Positions 5,287-32,199 of a stretch of 64,000 bases of DNA are shown here, one piece after another. How positions within the stretch are numbered: the stretch's first letter is position 1; every line of letters begins with the position of its first letter. The DNA comes from a virus. The DNA lies in UHGV virus genome UHGV-1451962; one strand, written 5' to 3'. The translations under genes were made by a program, and so were the position numbers. The notes beneath the pieces were generated by a model. The model searched no databases and had not been told where the DNA came from. It saw only the letters and a program-made list of their open reading frames with translations.

Positions 5287-5316
5287 ATATGCACAAAGAG
5301 TGAAAGGAGATTAATT

Positions 5317-8300
5317 ATGGCTAAAAGACTTAATTATGAAGTAGGCTTTACTGGCGATACTTCACAATTAAAAGCGTCTTTAAATGATGCTGTAAAAGCT
5401 TTACAAAAATTAGGTACTTCTTCAACTACTCAAATGACTCAGGGTATGCGGGAAGCATCTAAATCTGCATTAGAATTAGCTAATAATTTAAAAACTGCTA
5501 CTAATCAAGAAACAGGAAAATTAGATTTAGTAACTTTTAATAGAAATTTAGCTAATAGTAAGATGACCATTAGTGATTATGCTAAGCAATTATCTCAATT
5601 AGGCCCTACTGGTCAGCAAGCTTTTATGAAAGTTGCGCAAGCAGTTACTTCTGCGGAATTACCAATGAGACGTACTAATAAAGTATTGGATGAATTGTGG
5701 ACAACAATGAAAAATACTGCTCGTTGGCAATTAACCTCAAGTGCGTTGCATGGATTTATGGGAGCTTTAAATACTTGTGTTGGATATTCTAAAGCTTTAG
5801 ATAAATCTTTAAATTCTATCAGAATTGTTACTGAACAATCAGCTGAACAAATGGCTGATTTTGCAGTTCAAGCTAATAGTGCTGCAAAAAATTTAAGTAC
5901 AACAACAACAGATTATACGGATGCAGCATTGATATATTATCAACAAGGTTTAAATGACAAAGAAGTTCTTGATAGAACTGATATTACTATTAAAATGGCC
6001 AATGCCGCAAATGAAAGTGCTCAAGTAGTTTCTGACCAATTAACTGCGGTTTGGAATAACTTTTATGATGGTTCACAATCATTAGAGCATTATGCTGATG
6101 CGATGGTGGCGTTAGGTGCTGCTACTGCTTCTAGTTCAGATGAAATTGCTGGCGGCTTAGAGAAGTTTGCATCAATCGCAGACATGATTGGGTTAAGCTT
6201 TGATTATGCTGCTTCTGCTTTAGCAACAATTACTGCTACAACTCGTCAAAGCGAAGATGTTGTTGGTACTGCTTTGAAAACTATTTTTGCTCGTATTCAA
6301 GGTTTGAATTTAGGAGAGACCCTTGAAGATGGCACTGATTTAAATAAATATTCAGAAGCTTTGAGCAAAGTTGGTGTTTCAATTAAAGATTCTAATGGCG
6401 ATTTGCGTAATATGGATGCTATCTTAGATGATATAGGCGCAAAATGGGGTACTTTAACAAAAGACCAACAAGTAGCATTAGCGCAAACAGTAGCCGGCGT
6501 TCGTCAATACAACCAGTTAGTTTCTTTAATGGATAATTGGGATTTCTTTGAAGATAATTTAAAGATTGCCCAAAATTCTGAAGGTGAATTAAATAAGCAG
6601 GCTGATATTTATGCAGAATCTTGGGAGGCCGCGAGAAAAAGAGTTAAAGCTGCGGCAGAAGATATTTATGATAGCATTTTGAATCCTGAGAGCATTGTTG
6701 CTATTGATGATGTTTTAACTCCATTTTTAAGTGGAATAGCGCAAGTTGTTAATGCTTTAGGTGGATTAAAAGGTATTGCTTTAGTTGTTGGTTCTGTCCT
6801 TACTTCTGTTTATAGTGGTAAATTGGTAAATGGTTTACAAAATTTTGCTACTAATATTCAGATTATGACTGGACTTCAAGGAAAATTAACAAGAAGCTTA
6901 CAAGAACAAACCGTAACTGAAGCAGAAAATCTTGATATTATAATTGGTGGTAATCGTGCTTTAGAAACTGAAATTTCTTTGATGCGAGAAAAAGTTCAGT
7001 TACAAGGTATGATTAATAAATATACCAAGAATTATGACCAAAGTCAAATGTTACAAGTCAATCAGCGAGTAGGCGTTATTGATGCTTTGCGTCAACAAAT
7101 TATGGCTTCTGCTCAAAAACAAACTGCTTTGTTGGGTGAAGCTGAAGAATTTAAAACAACTATATTGTTAGATATAGAGCCAAAACCTGGTTGGGAAGAA
7201 AGATTTAGACAGAAAATTTTACAATTTAATACTAATATGGTTAATGGGCCATTAAAAAATCTTAATTCTGTCTTTTTATTTGATGAAAAAGATGATATAA
7301 CAAGAACTACTGAAAAAGTTACAGCAAGTATGCAAAAGTTAGCTTCTCAAGCTAGTTCTATAGAAGCAGTAAGACGAGCTTATAGCAATTTAAATATAGA
7401 TCAAAAAGAAAGTGCCGTTGTTTTACAAGAATTAATTCAAAAGACTGGTTTATGGAAAGCAGAAATGCAAAATTGGTCTACTCCTAAATTACAAGAATTT
7501 TTGAATAACTTAGGTACTCAATCAATAGAAGCTTCTAAAGGGATGCAACTTTTAAAACAAGCTTTAATGGAATTAAGTTATTCTCCTGAAGCTATTGATC
7601 AATTTATTAATTCGATAAGAAGATTAGCCGCTGAAGAACATAGTGCCGCAGAATATACAAGATTAATTAATGAAGAAATAAAAAAATTTACGAACAGTTT
7701 GCAAACTGGTAGTATTCAAAGTGAATCGGGTTGGGCAAAAACTGTTGTAAGCATGTCTAATCATCTTATGAATTTCGGAATGACTCTTTCCGCAGTTAGT
7801 AATATGGGTAAAGTTTTCAAAGAATCTATGGAAGGAAATATTACTGCGGGAGAAGCTTTCATTCAAATTATGACTAATTTGGGTATGATTTTGATGAGTG
7901 GCAGTAGCCTTTTCATGGCTTTGTCAAAATCAATGGGTGCTCTTGTTTCAGTTTATACTGGTGTAAATACTTCAGTAGCAGCTCTTACTTTTGTTACAAA
8001 ATTAAATACTGCGGCTGAAGAAGGAAATATAGCTGCAAAAATAGCTAATGTTGCAATTACAAAATTGCTTACTGTTTCAGAAGGTAGTTTAGCTGCTGCT
8101 ATGGGTATAACTATTGGCGTTTTAGCTCTTTTTGCGGCTGGAATTGTGTTTGCTGTAAAAATAATTGATGGTTTAATTGTAACTCAAAAAGAAGCCAGTC
8201 AAGCTATTGCGGATGCTACTCAAAATTATACTGATCAAAAGAGCAAATTAGATGAGTTAAATAGTTCTTTAGAGCAAACTAGACAAAAGATAGAAGAATT

Positions 8301-11300
8301 AGAATCTAAAGATTCTTTATCTCTTGTTGAACAAGATGAGCTAGCTAATTTAAAACAGCAAGAAGCTTCTTTAGAGAGACAAGCTGATCTAAGAGAGCGT
8401 ATAGTTAAAGCTAAACAAGCAGAAATGGCTTATGCTATTGCAGATAATTTTGACAAAAAATATGACAAGACTTATAAGGTAGAGCCAAAAGGTAGAACTG
8501 GTGCTGACACTTCTAATTTTAAAACACAAGAAGATTTAGATAAATGGTATAATAGTTTAAATTCTGACCAACAGGCAAAAGCATTAGACCAATATCAGAA
8601 TTGGACGCAACAGATAGCAGAAGCTACTGCTCAAATGACTTCTGAAGTAGGAGAAGATTTAGCTGAATTAGAACAAGACTATGCTAATTATTTAGGTGCT
8701 GTTGATTCTGGAGCAATTGTGGCCGATCCGTCTAAGATTGCAGATATGCAGGATAAATTAGCAGAATTAAGAAAATTAATATATCCTACTGATAATCAGT
8801 ATTATGAAATGGTTATCCGTCCGGTATTAGATGATGAATCTTTTGATGAAGTAAGAGATAAGATTTTTAGAGCTTTATCTTCTGGAGATATTAAAGGTGC
8901 TGGATTAGCCTTAACAGATGAAATGCGTTCTGCCATTGAAGCTGCTGGAATTTCTGTTGATGATTTATTTAATCAAATTGCAGAAAGAATGTCTCAGGCC
9001 AGAGAGACCATTAAATCTGAAATGGGCGGTACCGAAGAGCAATTAAATAAATTAACTGCCGAAGATTGGGATATTATTCTTACCTTGGATTTAGAAAACA
9101 TTGGTTCTTTTAGAGAATTAATGAAAGCTATTGAAAATGCTAAAAATACAGACCTTAAAGTTAAAGTAGATACTTCTGAGTTAGATGCAGCAAAAGATAA
9201 AATAGAAAGTTTAAATACTAATGAAGAGCCATTGGAAAAAGCCTTGATGTCTTATAAAGAACAAGGTTATCTTACTATGGATCAGACTTATGAATTAATT
9301 AAAGCTAACGAAGAATATGCTCAATATATTAAAAAAGTTGGAGATGAGTATGTTTTAACTACTCAATCTTTAACTGACTTTACTGAAATGGAAAAAGCTG
9401 AGAAATTGGCTTTAGACCAAGCTATTGAAGCTATGCAAAACAAAGGTAAAGTTGATAGAGATTATGCTCAGCAGTATGTTGATCTTTATAGTAGTTTAAT
9501 TGAAAGTAGTAAAAATTGGTCTGACCAAGAACGTGCAGATAGCGGAGAAAATTTTGATAAAAATACTGAAGCACTTAGAAGACAAGCTCAAGCGTTCCAA
9601 GAAGGAAAGATTAGCGCAAGTGAATATTTTGATGCAATAAATCAAAGAGTTAGTGAAACTGGGGATAATTTTGCAAAATTAAGTGATGGTATAGATGGTC
9701 TTAAAGAATCTGATTATGCAAAAACTATGATTTCCTCTACTACTGCTTTGGCTGATGGTTTTAAAGATTTAATCAGTGAAGTTGAAGCTGGCGGTACTAA
9801 TATGCAAGAGTATTATGCTGGTGCAGTTAAAGGTACTAAAGCTTTAATGAATATCACTGCTAAATCTAATAAATATATCACCAAAACAGCAGATGGTTAT
9901 AAAGTTGTTACTGATAATATTGATGATGCAACTAAAGCTACACAAGACTACAAAGATGCTCAGAAAAAAGTTCAAAATTTAAATACTTGGGAAAAACAAG
10001 TTGATCAAGCTGAAGGATTTAAAAAAGCAATAGATGATATTACTTCTTATTATGATTATTTAAAAAATTATTTAAATGATAATAATTGGCTTGAGTTACC
10101 TGATAATTTTGATACAACAACAACCAAATTTAAAAATATGTGCGATACTATGGCTGCTGATATTTGGTCTTTAAAAGATACAAATGCTGAAGCTTTTAGT
10201 GCGATTATGGCTCACATGGAAACTGAAAATGCTGGTTTTGATTCTAGTTTAATTACTTCTCAAAGTCAATTAGCTAGTGCTATGCAAGGAAATGCAACAA
10301 TAGCTTCTTCTGCTATTAATGGTCTAGCTGCTCAAAGTCAGATTAGTATTGGTACTTTATGTCAAATTGGTGGACAGTTATTACAATCTTTGGCAAGTGC
10401 TATTAGCAGTTTTAGTTATACTATTCAGGCGACTGGTGTTGTTGATAATCCTGGTGGTATTGGTTTAGGCGGAGGATTAGTCGATAAAATTGGTGCTTTA
10501 CTTACAACAGGAGGGAAAATTCCTTTTGAATGGGATATGCCTTCTGCCCATATTGATTTAACAGGTTCTGGTTCTGGTGGTTCACCTATGTTTAGCACTA
10601 CTGGTTCTGCAAGAGCGCAAAAAGTTAATGGCTCTGGTAAATCAAATTATATTCGTTCAAAAGACACTGGTGCTGCTAGCAAAGGTGAGTCATCAGGACT
10701 TTTAGAAAATATTTCTAAATTTGGTACTGCATTAGAAGAATATGGTAAACAATCTGTATTGTCTCAAGGTTTAAAAGCATTTGCCCCTTCAGGAGGAGGA
10801 ACTGGTGGTAGAACTCTTAACCCTAGTGGTATTTCTACTGATAACAATCGTCCTTCTGGTGGAGGAGGAGGAAAAGGCAAAGGTGGTAAAGGAAAAGGCG
10901 GAGGTGGTAAAGGAAAGGGAGGAAAAGGAAAAGGCGGAGGTGGTGGCTCCGGCTCAGATGATTCTCCTGAAATCGAAGATGAAGAAATTTTTGATGATAG
11001 ATACCACGATATTAATAATAGACTAGAAGAACAAAGTCAGCTACTAGATAAGATTGATACTGCTAAAGATAGAGCTTTTGGTGTTAAGAAATTAGAAAAA
11101 TATAAAGAAAAAATTGAAGCAATTAATAAAGAACAAGAATTATATAAAGAAAAATTAAAAAAGACTGAGGAATATTTAAAAGAAGATTTAACTGATTTAC
11201 AAAAGAACTTTTCTGGTGTTAAATTAAATATAGACTCTGATAGTAAAGCTTTATTAAATTATGAAGATTTAGAAAAATGGGCAATAGAAGAATATAATAA

Positions 11301-13932
11301 AGTAGTAAGAAAATATAATGCTTTAGGTTCTAAGACCGCGCAGGAATCTTTTAAAGATACTCTTGATGCTGCAAAGAAAACACTTGATTTAAGAAAAGAA
11401 ATTCTAGAGCAGTATGAAAATGATCAAAAGCAAAGAGTTGAACTTTTAGAAAATATTGCTGAAGAGGCTAGAAAGAAATTTAATGAAAAATTAAGTAGTA
11501 TTAATGCTGTTATAGAAGTTAAATTAAAGATTAAAGATTTTAAAGATACTAATAGAGAAATAGGTAAAAATGTTGTTGAAGCTTTTGGCGATGCTGTTAA
11601 TTGGGGCAAAAAACCTGGACAAATTGATTTCTTTGGTATGCAAGATAACTTAGCTAAAGCTAAAGACTTAGAAGAACATATGAATCAAATATTTAATCTT
11701 ATGTCTGAGTCTGAAGATAGTGCTGATTTTGAAAGTGTTATAGATTCTTTAGAAGATTTACATGGTAATATTGCTGATACTGTTTCTGATTTAAAAGATT
11801 GGTTAGAAAATCTTAGAGAGTATTTAACTGATGTTATTGATGCAGCAGCTGACAGATTTGCACAATTTACTGATCAATTAGACCATAATGGTACTGTATT
11901 AGATTCAGTAAAAGAATTATTAGATTTACAAGGAATAACTTATAAAACTGGTAAGAATTTTGAACTTTTACAGAAAACTATTCAAGGAAGATTGGAAACA
12001 GCTACTTCTACTGCCAAATTACAAAAGCAATGGATGGAAAAAGCTGCGGAACAATTAGCGGAAGCAGAAAAAGCTTTGGCAGGAGTTACTGAAGAAGATG
12101 CAGCTTATGATACTCTTAAAAATAATCGTGATGCTTTATTAAAACAATTTAATGAATCTCAAGAAGCTATGTTAGATGCAGCTAAAGAAGCTATGGAAAC
12201 GGCAAGAGAGTATTATACTAATGCTATTGAGAAAGCTGCTTATGATTTTGAGCAAGCTATTAGTGGCGGAATGGGTTTAGAATTATTGCAGCAAAAATAT
12301 GATAATTTAATTAGTAAAGAAGAAAGATATTTAGATAAAGTTAATGAAACATATGAAGTAAGTAAATGGAATAGACAACTTCAAAAAGCAATAGATGAAG
12401 AAACTAATGAAGCTTCTAAGAATAGATTAAAAACATTACAAAAAGAAATTGAAGTAAGACGTGAAGGTAATAAATTATCTAAATATGATTTGGATATTTT
12501 AGAAGCAAAATATCAAATGACTCTTGCTCAAAATGCTTTGGATGAAGCTCAAAATGCTAAAAATTCAGTGCGGTTAGTCCGCAATGAATCCGGCAACTGG
12601 GATTATCAATTTACAGCTGATCAGTCTAAAATTGATGAAGCTACACAAAAGTATGAAGATGCGGCAAATAACTATTACAATATAGCAAAAGACCAAGTTA
12701 AAAATATGATGGATGAAATTCTGCGATTAAAACAAGATACTTTAGACCAAATTAAAGATGTTTATGAAGATGAAAGTTTAACTGAGGAAGAACGTGGAGA
12801 AAAGATTGCAGAAATTCGTAGAAATGCAAATGATAAAATCCTTTATATTCAGCAAGAATATCAAGTATCTTTAGAAGATATGACAGATGCAGGTGGAGAG
12901 ATAATTACAGAATATGGAAATACTTATAATGATGTAATGAAAATTATGGAAATGGGTACTTCTGACTTTACTGCATATTTTGAAACTGCTCTTGATGAAA
13001 TGGAAAATGCTGCTGATAATTACAATAGCACTATGGAAGAAGTCACTGGGACTACTGGTTCAAATGTAGATGCTTTAAAACAAATTATTGATGATACTAC
13101 CAAATCTACTCAAGATTTAACTACTGCGGGTACTCAAGCCGCAGATGCTGTTTGGAAGAAAATTGAAGAAGTTCGCCAAGCTTCAGAGCAATGGTCTAAT
13201 TATGCAGCGTGTGTACGTCAAGCATTAGATACTTTGTATGAAATGTCTAACTTTGTAACTACTAGAACAGTTGCCGCTTCTGTTGGTGATATGAAAGGGT
13301 ATAATTCTAATATTGACTATTCTTCTGTTATGAATGATTATTTAAGCCAAGGTGGACAAGTTGGAGATGAAATATTTAAGAGTTTAGAATATCAAAGATA
13401 TTTGAAAATTCTTGGAGAAAATTTTGAACAAGGTAAACAGTATATTTATTCTAATGAAGATTATTATAATAAGCAAAATGATCCAGAGTTTCAGAAATGG
13501 CTAAAAGATAATGGCGGAACTGGCAAATATGAGGATTTTGTTAAGAGTCATACAATAGGTTACGCAACAGGAGGCTATACTGGTTCTTTTGATAATGAAG
13601 ATGGTAAATTAGCATTTTTACATGAGAAAGAATTAGTTTTAAATCAAGAGGATACTGAAAATATTCTTTCTGCGGTTTCCGCGGTTAGAACATTAGGGCC
13701 TAATTTGTTTAAACAAATAGAAAGAATTTTGGATAATAATATAATGGCAGGGCAAAATTTATTAAATGCTCGTATGGCTAGTTCTACTACTGTTTCTAGT
13801 GATGGGCAAATAGTTGAACAGATAGTGCATATTCAAGCTGATTTCCCTGGTGTATCCAGTGCAGCAGAAATCGAAGCAGCTCTTAATAATATTGTTAATG
13901 ATGCGGCTCAATATGCTAGTATTAGAAAATAA
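5317..13932 (+). CDS. tail tape-measure protein (2871 aa)
   Basis: Giant ORF. The N-terminal third shows the TP901-type tape-measure core pattern (..TTDYTDAALIYYQQGL.., ..GTALKTIFARIQGL..). There is a central hydrophobic stretch (..FMALSKSMGALVSVYTG..GITIGVLALFAAGIVFAVKII..) and long E/K/Q-rich helical segments. It lies between the chaperone-like gene and the distal tail genes. Confidence 0.9.
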   Translation: MAKRLNYEVGFTGDTSQLKASLNDAVKALQKLGTSSTTQMTQGMREASKSALELANNLKTATNQETGKLDLVTFNRNLANSKMTISDYAKQLSQLGPTGQQAFMKVAQAVTSAELPMRRTNKVLDELWTTMKNTARWQLTSSALHGFMGALNTCVGYSKALDKSLNSIRIVTEQSAEQMADFAVQANSAAKNLSTTTTDYTDAALIYYQQGLNDKEVLDRTDITIKMANAANESAQVVSDQLTAVWNNFYDGSQSLEHYADAMVALGAATASSSDEIAGGLEKFASIADMIGLSFDYAASALATITATTRQSEDVVGTALKTIFARIQGLNLGETLEDGTDLNKYSEALSKVGVSIKDSNGDLRNMDAILDDIGAKWGTLTKDQQVALAQTVAGVRQYNQLVSLMDNWDFFEDNLKIAQNSEGELNKQADIYAESWEAARKRVKAAAEDIYDSILNPESIVAIDDVLTPFLSGIAQVVNALGGLKGIALVVGSVLTSVYSGKLVNGLQNFATNIQIMTGLQGKLTRSLQEQTVTEAENLDIIIGGNRALETEISLMREKVQLQGMINKYTKNYDQSQMLQVNQRVGVIDALRQQIMASAQKQTALLGEAEEFKTTILLDIEPKPGWEERFRQKILQFNTNMVNGPLKNLNSVFLFDEKDDITRTTEKVTASMQKLASQASSIEAVRRAYSNLNIDQKESAVVLQELIQKTGLWKAEMQNWSTPKLQEFLNNLGTQSIEASKGMQLLKQALMELSYSPEAIDQFINSIRRLAAEEHSAAEYTRLINEEIKKFTNSLQTGSIQSESGWAKTVVSMSNHLMNFGMTLSAVSNMGKVFKESMEGNITAGEAFIQIMTNLGMILMSGSSLFMALSKSMGALVSVYTGVNTSVAALTFVTKLNTAAEEGNIAAKIANVAITKLLTVSEGSLAAAMGITIGVLALFAAGIVFAVKIIDGLIVTQKEASQAIADATQNYTDQKSKLDELNSSLEQTRQKIEELESKDSLSLVEQDELANLKQQEASLERQADLRERIVKAKQAEMAYAIADNFDKKYDKTYKVEPKGRTGADTSNFKTQEDLDKWYNSLNSDQQAKALDQYQNWTQQIAEATAQMTSEVGEDLAELEQDYANYLGAVDSGAIVADPSKIADMQDKLAELRKLIYPTDNQYYEMVIRPVLDDESFDEVRDKIFRALSSGDIKGAGLALTDEMRSAIEAAGISVDDLFNQIAERMSQARETIKSEMGGTEEQLNKLTAEDWDIILTLDLENIGSFRELMKAIENAKNTDLKVKVDTSELDAAKDKIESLNTNEEPLEKALMSYKEQGYLTMDQTYELIKANEEYAQYIKKVGDEYVLTTQSLTDFTEMEKAEKLALDQAIEAMQNKGKVDRDYAQQYVDLYSSLIESSKNWSDQERADSGENFDKNTEALRRQAQAFQEGKISASEYFDAINQRVSETGDNFAKLSDGIDGLKESDYAKTMISSTTALADGFKDLISEVEAGGTNMQEYYAGAVKGTKALMNITAKSNKYITKTADGYKVVTDNIDDATKATQDYKDAQKKVQNLNTWEKQVDQAEGFKKAIDDITSYYDYLKNYLNDNNWLELPDNFDTTTTKFKNMCDTMAADIWSLKDTNAEAFSAIMAHMETENAGFDSSLITSQSQLASAMQGNATIASSAINGLAAQSQISIGTLCQIGGQLLQSLASAISSFSYTIQATGVVDNPGGIGLGGGLVDKIGALLTTGGKIPFEWDMPSAHIDLTGSGSGGSPMFSTTGSARAQKVNGSGKSNYIRSKDTGAASKGESSGLLENISKFGTALEEYGKQSVLSQGLKAFAPSGGGTGGRTLNPSGISTDNNRPSGGGGGKGKGGKGKGGGGKGKGGKGKGGGGGSGSDDSPEIEDEEIFDDRYHDINNRLEEQSQLLDKIDTAKDRAFGVKKLEKYKEKIEAINKEQELYKEKLKKTEEYLKEDLTDLQKNFSGVKLNIDSDSKALLNYEDLEKWAIEEYNKVVRKYNALGSKTAQESFKDTLDAAKKTLDLRKEILEQYENDQKQRVELLENIAEEARKKFNEKLSSINAVIEVKLKIKDFKDTNREIGKNVVEAFGDAVNWGKKPGQIDFFGMQDNLAKAKDLEEHMNQIFNLMSESEDSADFESVIDSLEDLHGNIADTVSDLKDWLENLREYLTDVIDAAADRFAQFTDQLDHNGTVLDSVKELLDLQGITYKTGKNFELLQKTIQGRLETATSTAKLQKQWMEKAAEQLAEAEKALAGVTEEDAAYDTLKNNRDALLKQFNESQEAMLDAAKEAMETAREYYTNAIEKAAYDFEQAISGGMGLELLQQKYDNLISKEERYLDKVNETYEVSKWNRQLQKAIDEETNEASKNRLKTLQKEIEVRREGNKLSKYDLDILEAKYQMTLAQNALDEAQNAKNSVRLVRNESGNWDYQFTADQSKIDEATQKYEDAANNYYNIAKDQVKNMMDEILRLKQDTLDQIKDVYEDESLTEEERGEKIAEIRRNANDKILYIQQEYQVSLEDMTDAGGEIITEYGNTYNDVMKIMEMGTSDFTAYFETALDEMENAADNYNSTMEEVTGTTGSNVDALKQIIDDTTKSTQDLTTAGTQAADAVWKKIEEVRQASEQWSNYAACVRQALDTLYEMSNFVTTRTVAASVGDMKGYNSNIDYSSVMNDYLSQGGQVGDEIFKSLEYQRYLKILGENFEQGKQYIYSNEDYYNKQNDPEFQKWLKDNGGTGKYEDFVKSHTIGYATGGYTGSFDNEDGKLAFLHEKELVLNQEDTENILSAVSAVRTLGPNLFKQIERILDNNIMAGQNLLNARMASSTTVSSDGQIVEQIVHIQADFPGVSSAAEIEAALNNIVNDAAQYASIRK
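10858..10956 (+). repeat. Gly/Lys low-complexity tandem repeat inside the tape measure
   Basis: Encodes GGGGGKGKGGKGKGGGGKGKGGKGKGGGGGSGS, which is two imperfect 36-nt units (GGGGKGKGGKGK). It is followed by an acidic run (DDSPEIEDEEIFDD). Confidence 0.9.
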
Positions 13933-13935
13933 TTT

Positions 13936-13968
13936 AAAGGGGAGAATTTTTCTCCCCTTTATTTTTTT
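13936..13968 (+). terminator. intrinsic terminator after the tape-measure gene
   Basis: AAAGGGGAGA (13936-13945) pairs with TCTCCCCTTT (13951-13960), then ATTTTTTT. The next gene starts only 19 nt later. Confidence 0.8.
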
Positions 13969-13986
13969 GAGAGAAAGGAGTTTATA

Positions 13987-16900
13987 ATGAATAATATATC
14001 AGAGCAAATTCTTCAAGCAGCTGATATTTTAGCGCAAAAAAGATTATCCGAATTAAAATATGATATAACAGTTCAAGGCACTGTTGAGTCTTTAGTTAAT
14101 TTAAATACTGGTGAATATAAAGTTAAATATAATGGTAATATATTTTCTGCTTTTAGTAATGATTTAAAAACTACTTATAGAATTGGAGATAATATTTATA
14201 TAAAAATTCCAGAAGGAGATTTTTCTAATAAAAAATTAATTGAAAATAAAGTTACTGATAAGTCTTTAACTGAAAATAATTTAAATGAGCTAGAAAATTC
14301 TGTTTCTCCTGTTGGGCCTACTTTTGATGTTTTTTATAATTATGACAAAATAAAAGAATATGGGGTAGTTGCAGGAGCACCCAAAGATGATAAATTGTCT
14401 ATTACAGAGATTTTCAACAGAGAAACTGTAAGTAATTTTTCCGATATTCCTTTTTTACAATATGCTAATAAATATGAATATATTAAAATTCAGGCCGATT
14501 TTTTAACACTCTTTAGTGATATTCATTCTGAGGGAAATTATGGCTTAGAATTGGCATTTTCATCTAATGGAGAAGATGTTTTTTATAGACTTGATGTTTC
14601 AAATTTTAATGGTAGTCCTTATTCTTTTAATACTTATAGCACGCAATCAGTTACTGTAAAAATACAAACAAAATTTTTAACTGGTTTAAAAAGTATTAAG
14701 TTATTTGAAGAAGGATTTCAATACGATAAATATTTATCTAATGGTGAATATATTTATTTAGATAAAGCAACAGGCAAAGAATTAATACATGATAATGAAA
14801 CCAATGAATATTATTATTTAAATGATAATAATGAAAAAATAATTGTAAATCAAGAGAATAGAATAGAAAAAATAAATGATAAATCACCGAATATTTTTGT
14901 TAAAAATATTCAAGTACAGTATGTAGAAGTAAAAAATTTAATAGACAATCTATATTATTTAAGAATTAAAACACCTAATGGTCAAATGTTTACAGACCAA
15001 ATAGATGAAATTACTTTACAAGGACAATTAATTTACAATGGCAATTCAGTTTTAACAGAAAAGAATAGTACCTGTTATTGGTATGAAAGAGATTATTCTG
15101 TGATGATAGGTGATGAGGCCTATGATAAAAATGTTGGTTTTGGATGGCGACCAATTTCCGCAAATTTTGATACTCTTGTTTTAAAAGATGAAGATGTGGT
15201 ATATAAAAAAGTATTAAAATTAATGGTAGTTTATTCTGATAATGTTGTAATGTCTGAAGAGATAGTTATTAGTAATTATAATACTGATTATAATTGTTGG
15301 CTAGAGCAATTAACTGTTGGAGATACTATTGATTTACATATTAAAAATAATAGAGATGAAGATGAATTAGTCGGTGATTGGTATTTATCTTTACCTGATG
15401 GAAGTTATCAAGAGGTACCTAATGGTAAACAAAAATCTGAAATAGAAGTTAAGCAATATCTTTTATATTCTGCTGTAACTTTTTATTGTAGTATTTATGA
15501 TAAAGATAGAAAAAATATTATTGCCACTGAAGAATATACAATCACTAATACTGAATCACAAGAAGATTTAAGTATAAAGTATATTGGAGAAGATTCTTTT
15601 AGATATGATTCTAATGGTGATATTACTATTGAGGATTCTGAAAAAGAACGTACTATTGAATGTCAATTTGCCTGGAAAGATGGAGTCGGCACTTCTTATG
15701 ATATGACATGGTATAGTCCAGATGGGAGTTTATTAACAACAGGTGAAAGAGTTAATCCTGTTGATTCAATGATAGAAAATCTCTGGGTTGACAAATATAA
15801 TATTTTGCATTATACTATTAAACAGAAGTATAAAATAAATTTTAACAATAATACTATTCAAATTAAAGTTACTACTTTAGACCAAAAGGAATATATTTTT
15901 AATAAAGAAATTCTTTTTGTTAAAGATGGTGATCAAGGTACTAATGGTACTACTTATATCGCAGCTATTCGTCCTTGTGATGATAATGGTATTAAATTAA
16001 GTGGTTTACAGCCTTTGGTTTTTAATCCTTTAACCAAAGAGCTTTTAGATGAACAAGAAAGGATTAGAAATGATAATACTCTTTCTAATGAAGAAAAAAT
16101 AAAACAAATTTTAGAAGTTAGAAAAAGAGGATGGAATACTTTAAAGTTAAGAGTGTATGTTTATAAAGATGGAGAATTAATCAATAATTTAAATGGTAAT
16201 AAATATACTATTAAATATGAATGGTCTGGGACAAATATAAAATTACCTGAAGCAGAAACTGATGATGAATATATTAGCATTTCCGGCAATAGTGATCCAG
16301 TTATAAACTTTTATTCTACTTCTGATAAATATGAATTTTATATAAAAATTAAAATAACTGTTAGAGAAAAAGCAGGAGATTCTACTGTTTATCTTTATTC
16401 TATTTATCCTATTGATGTTGCAGTTAATGGTTTTGAATATAATAGAGTTGACATAAATGAAATTCCTTCTTATATTAAATATAATTCTTCTGGTTTAAAT
16501 CCTTCTTTTTATAGTAATGCTTTAAAATATACTTTTGATGAAATAGATCAAACTAAATTAGTAGAATCATTAAATAAAGATATTTTAGTAATTGAAGATA
16601 AACAACAAAAGGAATCTGAAATTATAGATAGATATTTAGTACCTTCTTCTAATTTTATTTTTGAAAGAGATTCAGATAAAAATAATAGTAGTATTGGTAT
16701 TTTAAAATGCCCCGACCCGCAATATAATACTAGATATTTATTACACTCTATTGTTATGTATCTTGATACATATGGCAATGAAGCTATTAATGGCTGGGAT
16801 GGAACACAGTTAGATATAGATAACAAAGGCCAATATGTTTTTGCCCCGCAGGTTGGTGCAGGTACTAAAAATGAACAAAATCAATTTACCGGCGTTGTTA

Positions 16901-18306
16901 TGGGTAAAGATAGCGGGCAGAAAAAAATTGGTTTATATGGTTATCAAAATGGTATTACTACTTTTGGTTTAATGCAAGATGGTTCTGCATTTTTTGGTGC
17001 TTCTACTAGCGGAAGAATTAATATTGATGGAACAAAAGCAAATATTTATGGCGGTTTAACAGAAAATGGCGCAAATAGTATGAAATTAACTTTATCTGAT
17101 ATGCGGATGACTGGTAGTACAAAAGCTATTAATATTAATGATTCAAAAGGTGAATCTGCTTTTTATGTAACTTATAATGGTTATATGTATGCTAATAATG
17201 TTAAAATAAAAGGTAATGTTGAAGCAACCACTTTAACAGCAACTAAAAGCGGCAAGATAGCTGATTTTACTATTGATTCAACTGGATTAAGAGGAGGTTC
17301 AATTACTTGTAGAAATTTAGTTGCTAACACTGATGGAGAAATTGCTGGTTGGAAAATTACTGGGCAAAGTTTAAAAAGTCCTAACGCTTCAGTAAATCAG
17401 CCTTCTGAGGCGGGAGGAGTGCCAACTTGGACAGGCACTACTTTAAATAGTAGTGGACAAATTTATACTCAGAAATTATATGCAAGTGGTGGAGATATTG
17501 GTGGCTGGCAGATTAATTCTACTAATTTATACGGAAGTGCTGAAGGAAAATTTCAAAGTATTACTTATGATGATGAAGGTAATATGAGTGTATCTGAAAT
17601 AACAGGTATTAAATTTACTGAATTACAAAAAGGCGGCCAGATTAAAACCAATACAGTACAAATTTTTAGTGATCCACAAGCTGAAGGACAAATAGGGAAT
17701 TATATTGGATATATGGGTCTTGTCTACGGAAGCACTACCAGTAAAGATACTACATATAACATAGGTATATATAGTCTTACTGGTGCTCGTCTTGAAGCTA
17801 AAGGAGATATAGCAATAGCCGCAGGAAAAGGTAGTATTTGGATGCATGGTAATATAATGGCGAGAAAAGGTTTTTATTGTGGAAATAGTTCTAATATTGA
17901 TAATTTAGATAAAAAATTTCTTGTTGAAAATAGAATTATTAGACTGGGTGCAGAGACAGATGCTGACCAATTGTATATTAGAAGTTCTTGGTTAGTTTTA
18001 AAAGATGATGGAATGTCTATTAAAAAGCCTACAACAATTACAAAAGATGTAACAATTTCTGCTAATCAAAAATTAAGTTTGTCTGGAAATGGTTATATTT
18101 CAACTCCAACTATACAGACTGATAAAATTCAACCAGTGGGTAAAGAGACTGGTACAATAACAGTGAGTGGAACTATGAGCGGTAGTTTTAAGGGTAGTCT
18201 TTCTACATCAAGTGGTTATTATTATAATAGTAGTGGAGCTTACACAAAACTTTTAGCAGGTAGTATAATAGATGATAGTATTAAAGTTTTTGCTAAATTT
18301 TCGTGA
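13987..18306 (+). CDS. large tail-tip / central-fibre structural protein (1439 aa)
   Basis: SD AAAGGAGTTTATA-ATG, directly downstream of the tape measure. The C-terminal region has repeated ..GEIAGWKITGQSL.. / ..GDIGGWQINSTNLYG.. motifs of the kind seen in phage fibre and tail proteins (from memory). Confidence 0.6.
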   Translation: MNNISEQILQAADILAQKRLSELKYDITVQGTVESLVNLNTGEYKVKYNGNIFSAFSNDLKTTYRIGDNIYIKIPEGDFSNKKLIENKVTDKSLTENNLNELENSVSPVGPTFDVFYNYDKIKEYGVVAGAPKDDKLSITEIFNRETVSNFSDIPFLQYANKYEYIKIQADFLTLFSDIHSEGNYGLELAFSSNGEDVFYRLDVSNFNGSPYSFNTYSTQSVTVKIQTKFLTGLKSIKLFEEGFQYDKYLSNGEYIYLDKATGKELIHDNETNEYYYLNDNNEKIIVNQENRIEKINDKSPNIFVKNIQVQYVEVKNLIDNLYYLRIKTPNGQMFTDQIDEITLQGQLIYNGNSVLTEKNSTCYWYERDYSVMIGDEAYDKNVGFGWRPISANFDTLVLKDEDVVYKKVLKLMVVYSDNVVMSEEIVISNYNTDYNCWLEQLTVGDTIDLHIKNNRDEDELVGDWYLSLPDGSYQEVPNGKQKSEIEVKQYLLYSAVTFYCSIYDKDRKNIIATEEYTITNTESQEDLSIKYIGEDSFRYDSNGDITIEDSEKERTIECQFAWKDGVGTSYDMTWYSPDGSLLTTGERVNPVDSMIENLWVDKYNILHYTIKQKYKINFNNNTIQIKVTTLDQKEYIFNKEILFVKDGDQGTNGTTYIAAIRPCDDNGIKLSGLQPLVFNPLTKELLDEQERIRNDNTLSNEEKIKQILEVRKRGWNTLKLRVYVYKDGELINNLNGNKYTIKYEWSGTNIKLPEAETDDEYISISGNSDPVINFYSTSDKYEFYIKIKITVREKAGDSTVYLYSIYPIDVAVNGFEYNRVDINEIPSYIKYNSSGLNPSFYSNALKYTFDEIDQTKLVESLNKDILVIEDKQQKESEIIDRYLVPSSNFIFERDSDKNNSSIGILKCPDPQYNTRYLLHSIVMYLDTYGNEAINGWDGTQLDIDNKGQYVFAPQVGAGTKNEQNQFTGVVMGKDSGQKKIGLYGYQNGITTFGLMQDGSAFFGASTSGRINIDGTKANIYGGLTENGANSMKLTLSDMRMTGSTKAININDSKGESAFYVTYNGYMYANNVKIKGNVEATTLTATKSGKIADFTIDSTGLRGGSITCRNLVANTDGEIAGWKITGQSLKSPNASVNQPSEAGGVPTWTGTTLNSSGQIYTQKLYASGGDIGGWQINSTNLYGSAEGKFQSITYDDEGNMSVSEITGIKFTELQKGGQIKTNTVQIFSDPQAEGQIGNYIGYMGLVYGSTTSKDTTYNIGIYSLTGARLEAKGDIAIAAGKGSIWMHGNIMARKGFYCGNSSNIDNLDKKFLVENRIIRLGAETDADQLYIRSSWLVLKDDGMSIKKPTTITKDVTISANQKLSLSGNGYISTPTIQTDKIQPVGKETGTITVSGTMSGSFKGSLSTSSGYYYNSSGAYTKLLAGSIIDDSIKVFAKFS

Positions 18307-27402: not shown

Positions 27403-28051
27403 ATTTTAATTCTATGGCTTTAATTTCCTTATAATTTTTAGCAGTATAAATTTGTGTTTTATATTGTTGCATTTTTTTATAATAAGGATAAACAAAATCA
27501 GAAATAGCTAAAGCTAAAGCAGTCAAATTTTCAACTGTCCAAGATGTACATTCTTCTTGGCGAGCATGCCATTCTAATCTAGGATTCTCTGCTCCAGCCT
27601 GAACTGCCATAGAATATTGATTCATATTTAGGCTAATTTCTGATTGATCTTCTTCTGTAACTCCATATTGCTTTCCATCAATCCAAGTCAAAGGATTATT
27701 AATGAGGAAATTAGCGAAAGCTTTTTTATTTTCTTCTTGTTTCATTTTTTGATATTCTTCTAAAGAATAGTAATATGTTAATTCATTTTTTTCATTATCA
27801 TATTTATAAAAATTAGGTTCATAATCTTCTGGAATATTACCATCAAAAGATAAGATTCTTACTGCATCAATAGAACCTGTCATATCTGAATTAGCCAAAA
27901 TGAAATGGCTATTGCAATCTGAGCCTATTACTCCTGTAGCTTCACCTTCCGAGCAAGCAATGACAATACTTGGGTTGGATTGTAATTTGATGTAGCGGAT
28001 TTCCGCAAGGATATCGACTACTATATTTTCTCTATTGATTAATAAATACAT
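27392..28051 (-). CDS. hypothetical protein; C-terminus resembles DUF4376-type phage (fibre-associated) domains
   Basis: 219 aa. Its ATG overlaps the RT stop (TAATG). The C-terminal ..TWIDGKQYGVTEEDQSEISLNMNQYS..WTVENLTALALAISDFVYPYYKKMQQYKTQIYTAKNYKEIKAIEL pattern recalls DUF4376 (from memory). Confidence 0.4.
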   Translation of the reverse strand: MYLLINRENIVVDILAEIRYIKLQSNPSIVIACSEGEATGVIGSDCNSHFILANSDMTGSIDAVRILSFDGNIPEDYEPNFYKYDNEKNELTYYYSLEEYQKMKQEENKKAFANFLINNPLTWIDGKQYGVTEEDQSEISLNMNQYSMAVQAGAENPRLEWHARQEECTSWTVENLTALALAISDFVYPYYKKMQQYKTQIYTAKNYKEIKAIELKYEN

Positions 28052-29307
28052 TATAATATTTCAACTCCTTTAAATAATGAATGGAAATAATTATCAAGAT
28101 TTTGTATAATATAAAAAGTAGTACCTTTATTTATATGTTCTCTAAAACCTCGATATGATTCTTGAATTTCTATATCAGTTATTTTACCTTGTAGCCAAAG
28201 TTGGTGCATTTTTCTCATTTTTCTATATTGTCGCTTTATTTTCTTTTTAAATGGAGTTTGAATAATTTTATTCGTATTAGTTAAATAAAAATCCCATTTT
28301 AAATATTTAAATGGATTATGTTTATCCGAACGTCTTTTATGAGGATAATTATTTTTATCTAGTTTTATTGGACTAATTTTAATTATTTTAGTTTTTCTTT
28401 TGTTACATTTTAAATGTATTTTATTTAATTCATTTTCAATTTTATTAAGACATTCTTTTAAATAATCTTTGTCATTATGCAAAATATAAATATCGTCCAT
28501 ATAACGTCCATAATATTTTAAATGCAAATGCTCTTTTGCATAATGGTCAATTCCATTTAATGCCAATAAAGCTAATAATTGAGATGCTTGACTACCTAAA
28601 CCTAAACTTTTATGATTAAATTCATAATAAGTACAATTTTTATAAAATTGTTTAGGATAAATTATCTTATATTTTTGTTTTTTGATGATATAGTATTGTT
28701 TATTAGGAATAGGAACTGTATCTTTTGTGACTGAAAAACAAAAGGTATCAATAATATAATCAATTAATTTAAATACTCGTTTTTCTTTAATATAATGTTT
28801 TGCCATTTGCTTTAAAGAATTATGGTCTATTGAATCAAAAAATTTTTGAATATCAATTCTTAAACCATAAAAAGATTTTCCTAAACCATATGTTCTGTGC
28901 GCTGCTTGTAAATGTTTACGCACTTCTAGCAAAGCAAAATCAATTCCTTTTCCTTTTAATGTAGCACAATTATCATAAATAAATTTTGGAGTTAGTTCTG
29001 GAATAAGAACTTGCGAACATAATGTATTTTGTGCCAATCTGTCATAAATATGGCACGCTCTTATATCTCTGGGTTTGCCCCGCTCAATTATACTAAAACT
29101 GTTAAAAACTAATTGTTCATAACTGTCATTTTCTAATTGTTCTTTAAGCGTTAAGATGTTATTTAATCTATTTTCTTCAAAATTAACTGTACTATCTTTC
29201 CATCTTACGTTTCGGCAAATAGAATAAGAAGAATCATAAAAAGCGTCAAAATTACAAAAACGCTGGAAAAGATTTTCTTCTATAAAAAATTCTCCTTTTT
29301 TTATCAT
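28051..29307 (-). CDS. DGR-type reverse transcriptase
   Basis: 418 aa with the YMDD catalytic box (..YGRYMDDIYILHND..) and the SLGLGSQASQLL segment matching the G-x-x-x-S-Q signature of DGR RTs. RT motifs 1-2 are present (..ERGKPRDIRACHIYDRLAQ..). It lies 282 nt downstream of a TR that matches a VR. Confidence 0.9.
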   Translation of the reverse strand: MIKKGEFFIEENLFQRFCNFDAFYDSSYSICRNVRWKDSTVNFEENRLNNILTLKEQLENDSYEQLVFNSFSIIERGKPRDIRACHIYDRLAQNTLCSQVLIPELTPKFIYDNCATLKGKGIDFALLEVRKHLQAAHRTYGLGKSFYGLRIDIQKFFDSIDHNSLKQMAKHYIKEKRVFKLIDYIIDTFCFSVTKDTVPIPNKQYYIIKKQKYKIIYPKQFYKNCTYYEFNHKSLGLGSQASQLLALLALNGIDHYAKEHLHLKYYGRYMDDIYILHNDKDYLKECLNKIENELNKIHLKCNKRKTKIIKISPIKLDKNNYPHKRRSDKHNPFKYLKWDFYLTNTNKIIQTPFKKKIKRQYRKMRKMHQLWLQGKITDIEIQESYRGFREHINKGTTFYIIQNLDNYFHSLFKGVEIL

Positions 29308-29589
29308 GCGGTGCTAGATTGTGTGCTCTGACACGCACATCCGCAATCTTAATTAATTATCTGTATAGATAAAAGGTTAAATTCTCCTTAAATGAAAGCT
29401 ATCTATTATAATCTAAGTCTTTTATTTAATATTTCCTCTCCTTCTTGGTTTTAAAACCAATGCGTCCAGAAAATACCAAAATAGATGAGTTATAACATAG
29501 GTTATAATTTTCTGGGGTAACACTTAGTCGTCTCAGTCGATGTCGCCTGCGGCTCCATCACCAGAGACAGTTAGAGTTCTCATCTAATC
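29308..29589 (-). ncRNA. TR-RT spacer; probable structured part of the DGR RNA
   Basis: No ORF. It contains a GC-rich segment next to the TR with GTCTC(29530-34)/GAGAC(29564-68) and GATG/CATC pairings. It also contains nested stems CCAGAAAAT(29466-74)/ATTTTCTGG(29507-15) and TTATAAC(29490-96)/GTTATAA(29501-07), a 16-nt perfect palindrome at 29445-60, and a GC-rich element (29308-29345) abutting the RT ATG. Confidence 0.5.
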
Positions 29590-29726: not shown

Positions 29727-30191
29727 TTATTTGTATCGCTGAGAATAAATTAGATTATCTCTATTTATTCTATCAAGAAGATTTTGTTTTAATTTGTAAG
29801 TAAGTTTAGCAACATATTTGAAAGATTTATTTTTCTTTTTATTATTTAACCCATATTCATAAATACATAAATCTAATTGCCTTAAAATTGAATCACAATA
29901 TCTTATTGATTTATTAAAGTAATCTGCTCTTTCAACTAAAGTTTTTTTATTTTTTAGATTGATTAAACTAGCAGAGAAAGCATATCCATGTGCGTTTTTG
30001 GCACATTTTAAAATATCTGCACCAAAAGCTGAATAATAGTATGGATTACCAAGAATACCTGGTTTAATATGAGAACCATCATCTAATTCTTGATATGGAC
30101 GAACTAAAATTAATACTTGATGGACTAACTTTCTTGCATCATTTAAATAATCATTTTTAGATTGATGCCTATCTTTTTTTCTTACTGACAA
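29727..30191 (-). CDS. avd: Avd-like DGR accessory protein (by position, size and basic helical composition)
   Basis: 154-aa K/R-rich ORF with a TTG start 7 nt after AAAGGAGG. It occupies the canonical slot between target gene and TR. No sequence motif verified. Confidence 0.5.
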   Translation of the reverse strand: MSVRKKDRHQSKNDYLNDARKLVHQVLILVRPYQELDDGSHIKPGILGNPYYYSAFGADILKCAKNAHGYAFSASLINLKNKKTLVERADYFNKSIRYCDSILRQLDLCIYEYGLNNKKKNKSFKYVAKLTYKLKQNLLDRINRDNLIYSQRYK

Positions 30192-30254: not shown

Positions 30255-30315
30255 AGAAAAAAAATTTTTAGAAAAAATTTTTTTCCCAGAAAAGGTGAAA
30301 GCATTTTTATACTAT

Positions 30316-30341
30316 GGCATTGGCCCTTTTGGGCCAATGCC
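30316..30341. promoter_or_regulatory. perfect GC-rich hairpin/cruciform just 3' of the VR
   Basis: GGCATTGGCCC (30316-30326), TTTT loop, GGGCCAATGCC (30331-30341). It lies 29 nt beyond the target stop codon. No U-tract follows on either strand. Confidence 0.6.
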
Positions 30342-30369
30342 AATATAACCTTACTGTATAACTTTACAG

Positions 30370-32133
30370 TTATCCAATAACGAAAGCGGGCGCGAGGTAA
30401 CGGTAGTTGGCGTAGTAGGTAAAGTCCGCACCACCATCAGAGTCGACACGGCACACATAGCCCGTGTAGTCCGAGTAGTAGTTGCGAGACCGCTCCCAAT
30501 ACCATTTGGAATCTCCTGAACTGTTACCATTAGCATCTTGAATGTTTTTTATACGGGAGCTGTCACTTGTGTAATAATCATAAGCAGCATTATATCCTTT
30601 AGTACATTCTGCATTGGAAACAGTAGAATTAGCAGTGCTGATTGGAGAATAACTATCTAATCCCATTTCTCTCTCAGAAGGAATCCAAACAGTTTCGTTA
30701 TTATAACTAACATTAGCACTTCTATTATCATCCCAATTATCGCAAGTACCTTTAGATACTGTTTTTATAGATGCTTTAGCAGCACAAGCATTATAAAAAT
30801 TTTGACAATAACTTCTAGCATTAGAACCAATCCATTGTGCGCTATTATCACCAAAAGTAGTCATATTCGGCAAGAGATAAACACTATGAAAAGCTAAAGT
30901 TTTATCTCCATCTTTGTCATAGCCAATACAACGCATTGTAACAGCATTTGCTCCTAAAACATTAGTAGATAAATTCATCTTTTTAGTTTTACCAACTAAA
31001 GCTTGACGTTCTGAAGCAGAAGAATTGTTAAGCCAAGACTTTAAGCCAGCCCACCAAGAAGCATCTCCCGCAGCACTCTCATTTCCCCAAGTCCAATATG
31101 TAGCAGTAGCAGTAATTTTTTTATTCGCGGGAGTTGTATAATTGGTACTGGCTGCTATTGATACAGTAATAGTAGCAGTTCCCGCGGTTGTACCATTGCC
31201 TTTAATGGTAATTGTTTTACCGCTTACTGTTGCTGAAGCCACATTAGAATTAGTAGAAGTTACAGAAATTGTACCAGTAGAATTAGTGGTCACAGTAACT
31301 TTTACACCAGTAGAATAATTAGATGCGTCAATAGAAACAGTAGAAGTGCTTAGACTTAATGTTCCTGTTGCTTTTTGAATAGACCAATCAACATTTTTCG
31401 CGGTTGTTGTCTTATCAGGCCATCTGTAATTATTTTTAGGAGTAAAAGTAGCTGTATATTTTCCTGCATTAATTCCCGATGTAGTTCCTCCAATAGTCAT
31501 GTAACTTGTATTATAATTTGACCAATTTGGACTTTGCGAATTGGCGTTATAAGTTAAAGTTCCAGTTTGAGAAGGAATAGGAACTGTTTTTCTTTCTACT
31601 GTTACAGAAAAAGTAGTAGTTTTAGTAATACTATTTTCTGTATAAGAAACAGTAATTGTTTGAGTACCAACTGTATTTAAAACAGAAGGTGAAGTTGTCC
31701 AACCAGAAACAGTAGCGGTTTTACCATCAGAATAAGTGGCAGTAACAGACATTCCGGCAGATTCAAATGTCTCGCCATATTCATAAATTGTCTTAGTTGG
31801 TTTTGTGCTTGTGATGCTGGTTAGTGCATGGATAACAGTAACTGCTTGCTCGGCGGTACAAGTAACTCCTCCTTCAGAGTAAGTAATAGTAACTTTAGTT
31901 ACTCCATCAGTTAAAGGAGAAGGTGTTACAGTATATCCAGTTACCGCAGTAGAAGAAACAACAATATTATCAATGGCATAATTGGCAGTTATAACCATTC
32001 CTGTTGTTTCAAATTCTTGTCCAGCAACGTAAGATGTACGGTTTGGTGGAGTAGTAACTTCAATAGAGTGGAGTGCTATTGAGCTTCCGCCACCTTTTCC
32101 GCCTTGTTCAGTTAAAATGCATTTAACAGGCAA
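30370..32133 (-). CDS. DGR target protein: Ig-like repeats plus a C-terminal lectin-fold-like variable domain (putative receptor-binding or fibre protein)
   Basis: The track ORF 30370..32154 begins inside its own SD (TTG ATA AGG AGG). The more likely start is the TTG at 32133, 9 nt after GGAGG. There are repeated ~90-aa segments (..VTGYTVTPSPLTDGVTKVTITYSEGGVTCTAEQAVTV.. / ..VSGWTTSPSVLNTVGTQTITVSYTENSITKTTTFSVTV..). The C-terminus ..WYWERSRNYYSDYTGYVCRVDSDGGADFTYYANYRYLAPAFVIG is the VR. Confidence 0.85.
   Translation of the reverse strand: MPVKCILTEQGGKGGGSSIALHSIEVTTPPNRTSYVAGQEFETTGMVITANYAIDNIVVSSTAVTGYTVTPSPLTDGVTKVTITYSEGGVTCTAEQAVTVIHALTSITSTKPTKTIYEYGETFESAGMSVTATYSDGKTATVSGWTTSPSVLNTVGTQTITVSYTENSITKTTTFSVTVERKTVPIPSQTGTLTYNANSQSPNWSNYNTSYMTIGGTTSGINAGKYTATFTPKNNYRWPDKTTTAKNVDWSIQKATGTLSLSTSTVSIDASNYSTGVKVTVTTNSTGTISVTSTNSNVASATVSGKTITIKGNGTTAGTATITVSIAASTNYTTPANKKITATATYWTWGNESAAGDASWWAGLKSWLNNSSASERQALVGKTKKMNLSTNVLGANAVTMRCIGYDKDGDKTLAFHSVYLLPNMTTFGDNSAQWIGSNARSYCQNFYNACAAKASIKTVSKGTCDNWDDNRSANVSYNNETVWIPSEREMGLDSYSPISTANSTVSNAECTKGYNAAYDYYTSDSSRIKNIQDANGNSSGDSKWYWERSRNYYSDYTGYVCRVDSDGGADFTYYANYRYLAPAFVIG
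30388..30491 (-). repeat. DGR variable repeat (VR), encoding the last ~35 codons of the target protein
   Basis: Pairs with the TR. There are 21 differences; 20 are at positions where the TR coding strand has A, and 14 of 15 TR AAY codons differ. The shared GC-rich 3' end CCTCGCGCCCG is IMH-like. Confidence 0.9.
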
Positions 32134-32199
32134 GGTATAAGACCTCCTTATCAAGAATTATTATTAGAGTTTTAAAACTCCATCATTATTTATAGAATA

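Follow-up and report, generated by a model that had tools for sequence, protein, structure and literature searches.

The spacer between the template repeat (TR) and the reverse transcriptase (RT) gene of a diversity-generating retroelement (DGR) in UHGV virus genome UHGV-1451962 was found to specify a conserved, structured RNA. The stretch of DNA analysed, 64,000 nt in length, is referred to here as the window. Judged from comparison with related loci, the structure of the spacer RNA is real and clearly functional, and it is very probable, by sequence and by analogy, that the spacer constitutes the 3' part ("Sp") of a non-coding DGR RNA that follows the layout known from phage BPP-1 in enlarged form. 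An initial annotation of the window had proposed a larger analogue of BPP-1 Sp, and the order of the elements, their spacing and pairing partners, the covariation and an unconstrained fold all point the same way. The spacer RNA is thus an enlarged case of a known DGR RNA, and its clade-specific feature is a second, competing primer-like strand.

The comparison was based on an alignment of 63 distinct sequences (the window and 62 others) from about 11 lineages that spanned the TR flank, TR, spacer and RT start, and slid partners and 500 shuffles served as controls for pairing. The spacer with short flanks folded better than all of 100 shuffled versions (z = -2.67), and a longer segment that included the upstream strand and TR (29725-29285) gave z = -2.59. 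Pairs were counted on a MAFFT alignment for one specified structure of 47 pairs in seven helices, i.e., the post-TR stem-loop, helix C, the outer and middle tiers of the stem-loop next to RT, and two long-range helices. Across the 63 sequences these positions were 95.9% paired, as opposed to 35-52% with slid partners, and compensatory changes occurred at 21 of the 47 pairs. The covariation score was 0.218 vs. 0.04-0.07 for slid controls, and none of the 500 shuffles reached the observed values. Since MAFFT misaligned hairpin E between lineages, the 3' domain was realigned with its own covariance model, which yielded 17 pairs that were 96.2% paired, 14 of them with compensatory changes. All of the pairings listed in the initial annotation were present in the window, and most are kept with compensatory changes in the 62 other sequences. 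The stems it described are conserved, apart from a 7-bp hairpin (29507-29490) that rests on a ~10-nt insertion seen only in the window and its near-twin, L094. They had been read as separate local features; instead, they are parts of one architecture, whose two long-range helices had gone unnoticed.

The spacer had been described as free of open reading frames (ORFs), and only ORFs of 20-33 aa were found. A coding sequence spanning the spacer was also looked for among the relatives; no conserved ORF was present there, and indels were not multiples of three. These results bear on the possibility that the pairings arose by chance as inverted repeats in AT-rich DNA, or are palindromes that bind protein at the DNA level or the remnant of a decayed gene. 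Short inverted repeats are indeed common in sequence like that of the window (30% G+C), and the 7-bp hairpin is lineage-specific. However, z scores of -2.6 to -2.7, compensatory changes at 21/47 and 14/17 pairs, slid-control pairing of 25-53% across both alignments, frequent G-U pairs that are valid only on minus-strand RNA, and indels that break any frame make such an origin scarcely credible. A permissive-threshold scan of Rfam gave only chance-level hits and no relevant family (leader, riboswitch or retron).

The elements of the RNA, in transcript order and with Sp1 set at 29588, are as follows.

29715-29705, minus strand: 5' strand of the stop duplex, GGUUAAAUUCU, 11 nt upstream of TR
29693-29589, minus strand: TR, 105 nt, aligned to the variable repeat (VR) at 30491-30387
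29588-29308, minus strand: spacer, 281 nt, from TR to the RT ORF
29587-29579, minus strand (Sp2-10): template-side strand, UUAGAUGAG, immediately 3' of TR; side of a putative template:primer duplex
29568-29530, minus strand (Sp21-59): GC-rich, interrupted post-TR stem-loop; putative analogue of the Avd-binding stem-loop
29515-29507 with 29474-29466, minus strand: helix C, CCAGAAAAU with AUUUUCUGG, the 9-bp stem, within the extra domain (~Sp60-192)
29445-29460, minus strand: hairpin D, the 16-nt palindrome UUGGUUUUAAAACCAA; a variable hairpin
29396-29388, minus strand (Sp193-201): putative primer strand, copy 2, UUCAUUUAA, followed by a GG linker at 29387-29386
29385-29375, minus strand (Sp204-214): 3' strand of the stop duplex, AGAAUUUAACC, two bases (GG) after the primer strand
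29372-29357, minus strand (Sp217-232): hairpin E, UUAUCU-AUAC-AGAUAA, followed by an A-rich single strand at 29356-29346 (Sp233-243)
29345-29307, minus strand (Sp244-282): stem-loop F; putative analogue of the RT-binding stem-loop
29298-29290, minus strand (Sp291-299): Shine-Dalgarno sequence (SD) of RT, AAAGGAGAA, aligning with the family motif (G)AUAAGGAG
29283-29281, minus strand: in-frame ATA, 8 nt after GGAG, at the start-codon position of the family

The two long-range helices join the spacer to either side of TR. The stop duplex (29385-29375 with 29715-29705) has 11 bp, five of which show compensatory changes, and its 3' strand lies ~204-214 nt downstream of TR. In three poorly aligned lineages, a duplex of 11-12 bp with unrelated sequence occurs 7-14 nt ahead of TR, such that the duplex is kept in 11/11 lineages, in at least five different sequences and always 7-14 nt before TR. 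The second helix forms on the post-TR strand (29587-29579), in which UUAGAU is invariant among the 63 sequences and which can pair with 29396-29388 (copy 2) or, alternatively, with 29489-29481. Its helix with copy 2 (7-9 bp) was 99.8% paired, appears in the minimum free energy (MFE) and centroid structures, and includes one compensatory pair, G-C to A-U, in three sequences of two lineages. In the unconstrained fold of 29725-29285, the stop and primer duplexes lay side by side in both the MFE and centroid structures, as they did in the folds of 40 of the 63 sequences. The UAAGGA motif made up of the end of copy 2, the GG linker and the start of the stop strand was invariant in 63/63 sequences. 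The same junction contains an AAGGAG motif (UAAGGAGAA, 29390-29382) that spans the primer strand, linker and stop strand and is invariant in relatives; it is the RNA architecture, and not translation, that accounts for this motif. A third partner, UAGAUG, just 5' of copy 2, was considered for a symmetric four-strand swap and dropped, as its duplexes were weak (0 to -7.5 kcal/mol), it forms a mini-hairpin of its own in several lineages, and it is absent from L028 and L030.

In relatives, the post-TR stem-loop is a stack of three helices (5+3+5 bp) that ends in a triloop (GNA) or a tetraloop (GNRA), with compensatory changes at 8 of 13 pairs; in the window it reads GUCUC/GAGAC, GAUG/CAUC, a tandem GA and then GCC-GCA-GGC. 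At one locus (L142:2583-2700) the 3' arm of this stem-loop is replaced, giving a perfect 17-bp hairpin, GCAAGUCAAGCUGCGAAGCAGCUUGACUUGC (-30.5 kcal/mol), a change that looks like a template-switch or repair event.

This arrangement parallels that of the BPP-1 DGR RNA, which comprises avd, TR and Sp (Handa et al., 2018, PMC6182149) and for which a cryo-EM structure is available (bioRxiv 10.1101/2023.10.23.563531). There, a template-side strand within TR (TR117-129) is followed by an Avd-binding stem-loop (Sp3-33), a primer strand (Sp47-56) with priming A56, a linker of G57, which is required, and C58, and a stop strand (Sp59-70) that forms 11 bp with avd369-379 upstream of TR. Next come a small stem-loop (Sp71-78), A80/A81, the single strand of the Thumb Ring (Sp82-94) and an RT-binding stem-loop (Sp95-139) with a long stem and two internal loops (bioRxiv 10.1101/2023.10.23.563531). 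We checked the BPP-1 sequence and found A56-G57-C58, a UUCG stem-loop at 71-78, A80/A81 and the brt ATG at Sp145 in place, with the RT-binding stem-loop ending 5 nt before brt. Among the BPP-1-type features, a post-TR stem-loop, a stop duplex, a small stem-loop with adenosines and a 3' stem-loop were all found in the window. The likeness extends to a putative primer strand ending in A and followed by G, with a linker of 2 nt between it and a strand that forms 11 bp with a segment ~8-11 nt upstream of TR. Beyond these come a small hairpin, adenosines, a single-stranded stretch and, shortly ahead of the RT start, a long interrupted stem-loop, and the gene order (target/VR, Avd, TR, spacer, RT) is likewise the same. 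The two differ in length (144 nt in BPP-1 and 281 nt in the window), in the ~130 extra nt (helix C, hairpin D and the second primer-like strand) that precede the primer strand in the window, and in their loops, which are GNA/GNRA in the window clade and UNCG in BPP-1.

Avd-binding stem-loops and cPRT Stop duplexes have been predicted in 207 of 278 Avd-containing DGRs by folding single sequences with 40 nt upstream and 100 nt downstream of TR (bioRxiv 10.1101/2023.10.23.563531). The interrupted, small-loop stem-loop just downstream of TR is common to that survey and the present clade, whereas the evidence here is clade-wide covariation rather than single-sequence folding. Because the stop strand of the window lies ~204-214 nt downstream, a survey that folds 100 nt would miss it. 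Retrons offer a further comparison. Their msr-msd RNA is a structured non-coding RNA beside an RT gene, recognised by the RT and self-primed from an internal 2'-OH, and the window RNA likewise adjoins its own RT gene. Retrons, however, are marked by the flanking inverted repeats a1/a2 and a branching G, and they have no TR/VR, Avd or adenine mutagenesis.

By analogy with BPP-1, the spacer RNA would work as follows. The transcript, which probably starts at a promoter-like site before the Avd-like gene, would fold so that the spacer brackets the template, with the post-TR stem-loop docking the Avd-like protein. Pairing of UUCAUUUAA (29396-29388) with the post-TR bases would place its last A as the cis-primer, such that cDNA starts at the last base of TR. 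AGAAUUUAACC, paired with the segment upstream of TR, would adjoin the primer duplex, loop out TR and stop RT at the 5' end of TR. Hairpin E with its adenosines, the single strand and the tiered 3' stem-loop may hold RT, and RT itself would be translated from the conserved SD just after that stem-loop. The ~130 extra bases, with helix C, hairpin D and the second primer-like copy, form a domain specific to the clade.

Several points weigh against this interpretation. Transcript ends, protein binding, priming and termination are what we infer, the last three by analogy with BPP-1. The match to BPP-1 is architectural only, with no sequence or profile similarity and no Rfam family, and the covariance model of the 3' domain found nothing in BPP-1 (filters off) or in ~28 distant DGR loci. 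Whereas the template-side strand of BPP-1 lies inside TR (TR118-129), that of the window falls just beyond the 3' end of the TR/VR homology. The alignment made with the covariance model tends to favour that model, and about 11 lineages offer few independent events. Finally, a second strand within the extra domain, copy 1, pairs with the same post-TR bases as copy 2, shows more compensatory changes, and in most lineages forms the more stable duplex (-10.8 to -14.4 kcal/mol vs. -8.3 to -10.0 kcal/mol for copy 2).

Copy 1 (CUCAUCUA, 29489-29482) forms nine Watson-Crick pairs with the post-TR strand, and this helix was 97.4% paired with three compensatory pairs, which include both of the positions changed in the window lineage. 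It might be asked whether copy 1 is the true primer, or the permanent partner of the post-TR strand, closing an Avd stem-loop domain, and whether the copy 2-GG-stop segment serves only as the stop and to position RT. The copy 1 duplex forms when the upstream strand is omitted from the fold and is in the MFE structure of 13/63 full-length sequences, and in the short-spacer lineage L028 the equivalent strand directly follows the stem-loop. Nevertheless, copy 2 covaries as well and wins the full-length folds of the window and of 43/63 sequences. We consider such a role for copy 1 unlikely, and took copy 2 as the primer strand because copy 1 varies whereas neither copy 2 nor its GG linker does, and because only copy 2 places the primer strand two bases from the stop strand, as in BPP-1.

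The helices formed by copy 1 and by copy 2, the putative primer strand, are mutually exclusive, and pairing of copy 1 would form a pseudoknot with helix C. We tentatively suggest, as a possibility to which we give limited credence, that they act as a conformational switch absent from the BPP-1 RNA. Copy 1 would lock the template end while the RNA serves as RT mRNA; the stop duplex, or binding of RT and the Avd-like protein, would shift the pairing to copy 2 and license cis-priming; and RT bound to stem-loop F would shut off its own translation, with weak start codons adding a further control.

The remainder of the extra domain is conserved to varying degrees. Helix C encloses both the 7-bp hairpin (29507-29490) and copy 1, and six of its base pairs (CCAGAA/UUCUGG) are conserved, 94.8% paired, with one compensatory change. 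At the position of hairpin D, nearly all relatives that have the region fold a hairpin of other sequence and length; L028 and L029 are without the region. Directly 3' of hairpin D, a purine-rich stretch with an AAGGAG motif (GAAGGAGAGGAAA) occupies 29444-29430.

In the 3' domain, four of the five counted pairs of hairpin E are compensatory, and a strand-specific U-G pair occurs in 32/36 sequences; the hairpin is followed by AUAA and then an A/U-rich stretch. Stem-loop F, in which 10 of 12 pairs are compensatory, is built in relatives of three tiers (5+4+3 bp) interrupted by a bulge of 2 nt and an internal loop of 5 nt. Of these, the window retains the outer tier, UGCGG/CCGCA (29345-41 with 29311-07), together with a single inner stem, UGUGC/GCACA (29339-35 with 29326-22). 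A coding interpretation of this domain, based on a TTG..TGA frame of 26 codons over hairpins E and F in the L006 group, was rejected, as the frame reads ATT TAA in the window and lacks a start in L025.

The initial annotation also stated that the RT start lacks an SD, because the longest ORF had been taken as the gene. In fact, a canonical SD, AAAGGAGAA, lies downstream of the upstream ATG at 29298-29290 and corresponds to the conserved SD of the family, (G)AUAAGGAG, which directly follows stem-loop F. In a crude check of the accompanying statement that nearly every gene in the window has an SD, 28 of 47 long ORFs had one before their first canonical start. An in-frame start codon occurs 5-10 nt after GGAG in 63/63 sequences: TTG in 43, ATG in 15, GTG in two, ATT in one (three loci) and ATA in two (the window and L094), and ATA GAA GAA AAT of the window aligns with TTG GAA GAA AAT of L088. 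The upstream ATG (29307-29305), the A-U-G inside CAUGAUAA, has no SD, and its A ends the outer stem of stem-loop F. It is not conserved, relatives having ACG, ACA, CUG, an out-of-frame codon or a stop right after it. RT homologues are conserved from F-E-R-F-C onwards, with variable N-termini. By sequence alignment, then, the ancestral RT start is the position 5-10 nt after GGAG, and candidates for initiation in the window are AUA 29283, with an SD, and AUG 29307, without one.

Considering that stem-loop F ends ~9 nt before the SD, that the A of the upstream ATG closes its outer stem, and that RT genes of the family start mostly at weak codons (TTG, ATT, ATA), suggesting selection for low RT expression, the structures could be viewed mainly as a translational leader or operator of the RT mRNA rather than as a templating RNA. 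This view appears highly improbable. Relatives share no conserved anti-SD pairing, folds of the window leave the SD unpaired, and Rfam returned no leader or riboswitch match. Moreover, the best-supported helices join the spacer to both TR flanks, which fits templating and not control of translation. With no such anti-SD pairing, the earlier suggestion that RT translation is coupled to RNA folding is unsupported, and could be entertained only by way of RT binding to stem-loop F. Autoregulation through RT bound to stem-loop F is conceivable.

These results also indicate that RT genes of the clade are often mis-started, with the real start following the conserved SD and being mostly non-ATG. The 418-aa versions of RT, including that of the window, begin at the upstream ATG. 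Many database RTs (P0026/P0043-type; L003-L005) are 387 aa long and start internally at MYDASY, with no canonical start upstream; because the conserved FERFCSFDA segment lies upstream of that Met, these entries are truncated. In L003-L005 the sole in-frame candidate after the SD is ATT. In many relatives, among them L001, L002 and L006-L024, the RT N-terminus contains two to three in-frame TAG codons from the SD-proximal TTG to FERFC (~locus 2985-2995), and database protein P0063 reads these as Q (MIRRKKLSQQQTSFERFC), from which it follows that those phages use TAG as a sense codon. The window itself is densely coding under code 11, with TAG as the stop in 1 of 59 long ORFs and no tRNA gene, and recoding of TAG was not needed there.

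The spacer had been called unusually long at 282 nt. Its length is 281 nt, 29589 being the last base of TR, and is roughly twice that of the common class. The distance from TR to RT was 276-321 nt in nearly all close relatives, two lineages being shorter (175 and 246 nt), and 84-143 nt in most other sampled phage DGR loci; several unrelated DGR clades reach 259-327 nt. The length is therefore a conserved trait of this clade, yet not unique to it. About 1,900 homologues of the RT occur in the protein database. More than 100 related loci with RTs 55-66% identical were recovered by scanning IMG/VR, GTDB genomes and metagenomes, along with one further, near-identical locus whose RT is 100% identical. 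Human-gut assemblies are the source of nearly all of the related loci, whose contigs often measure 140-150 kb, many of them about 145-148 kb, and some of which are binned with metagenome-assembled genomes of Oscillospiraceae, Eubacterium or Clostridia. They share the same gene order and have active-looking TR/VR pairs. Among GenBank phages, blastn with the locus gave no match, and tblastn with the RT gave at most 32% identity to any phage DGR RT.

The locus is a bona fide DGR, as shown by its A-specific TR/VR mismatches, its RT and an Avd-fold protein. It lies on the minus strand in the order target/VR, Avd-like ORF, TR, spacer, RT, with the following features in addition to those given above.

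30370-32154, minus strand: target gene, whose protein has a Big_3 domain
30491-30387, minus strand: VR, the 105 coding bases preceding the final 14 nt of the target gene
30254-30226, minus strand: promoter-like site, TTGACT-17-TATAAT with a TG ahead of the -10 element, preceding the Avd-like gene
29727-30191, minus strand: Avd-like accessory gene, 154 aa, between VR and TR
28051-29307, minus strand: RT ORF, longest reading, with RVT_1 and PHROG matches

Both hallmarks of a DGR, an adenine-biased TR/VR pair and an RT beside TR together with an Avd-type protein, were present. All but one of the TR/VR mismatches in the window alignment fall at TR adenines; the sole other difference is T at 29685 in TR vs. 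A at 30483 in VR (GCTACT vs. GCAACT). Mismatches in relatives number 9-30, with an A fraction of 0.83-1.0, such that they are A-specific in the window and in essentially all relatives. The RT matched RVT_1 (E = 7e-15) and the PHROG reverse transcriptase (3e-75). The Avd-like ORF had no meaningful sequence or profile match in Pfam or PDB. Its AlphaFold2 model is a helical bundle (predicted local distance difference test score, 91), and the top fold matches were 2rld and 2gsc (template modelling score 0.74-0.85 on the target), which were deposited as an "S23 ribosomal protein family" protein and a hypothetical protein, respectively, and whose fold family we take to be that of BPP-1 Avd. Since sequence searches were empty and fold comparison alone was informative, the Avd-type assignment of the 154-aa ORF was made from the fold. 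The promoter-like site matches the consensus at 11 of 12 positions and scored highest in the region, and no terminator-like site was found from there to RT; on this basis, the avd-TR-spacer-RT transcript likely starts at this site.

On the minus strand at 30315-30342, ~45 nt beyond the end of VR and 28 nt past the stop of the target gene, UGGCAUUGGCCC-AAAA-GGGCCAAUGCCA makes up a GC-rich hairpin with a perfect stem of 12 bp and a loop of 4 nt. Its position recalls a BPP-1 hairpin/cruciform that, reportedly in work by Guo et al. in 2011, helps target recognition; it could equally be a terminator of the target gene, though no T-run follows. Elsewhere in the window, 325-codon stop-to-stop ORFs with identical end coordinates occur on both strands at 57233-58210, which is odd and may be chance in AT-rich sequence. 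On the plus strand, two giant ORFs, encoding 2,883 and 1,457 aa, adjoin each other at 5281-18306. Taken with the ~147-kb contigs of relatives and the lack of a close GenBank phage, these ORFs suggest that the phages belong to a clade of large gut phages, infecting Clostridia, that is as yet undescribed.

The control of reverse transcription by DGR RNA rests so far on one phage, BPP-1, and the present clade provides an independent, covariation-backed instance in abundant, uncultivated human-gut phages. That the clade retains the A-G of the putative primer, a linker of 2 nt and a stop duplex of 11 bp without sequence similarity supports a general mechanism. The results also indicate that the stop strand can sit >200 nt from TR, and the competing primer-like strand offers a natural case for asking whether priming is gated.

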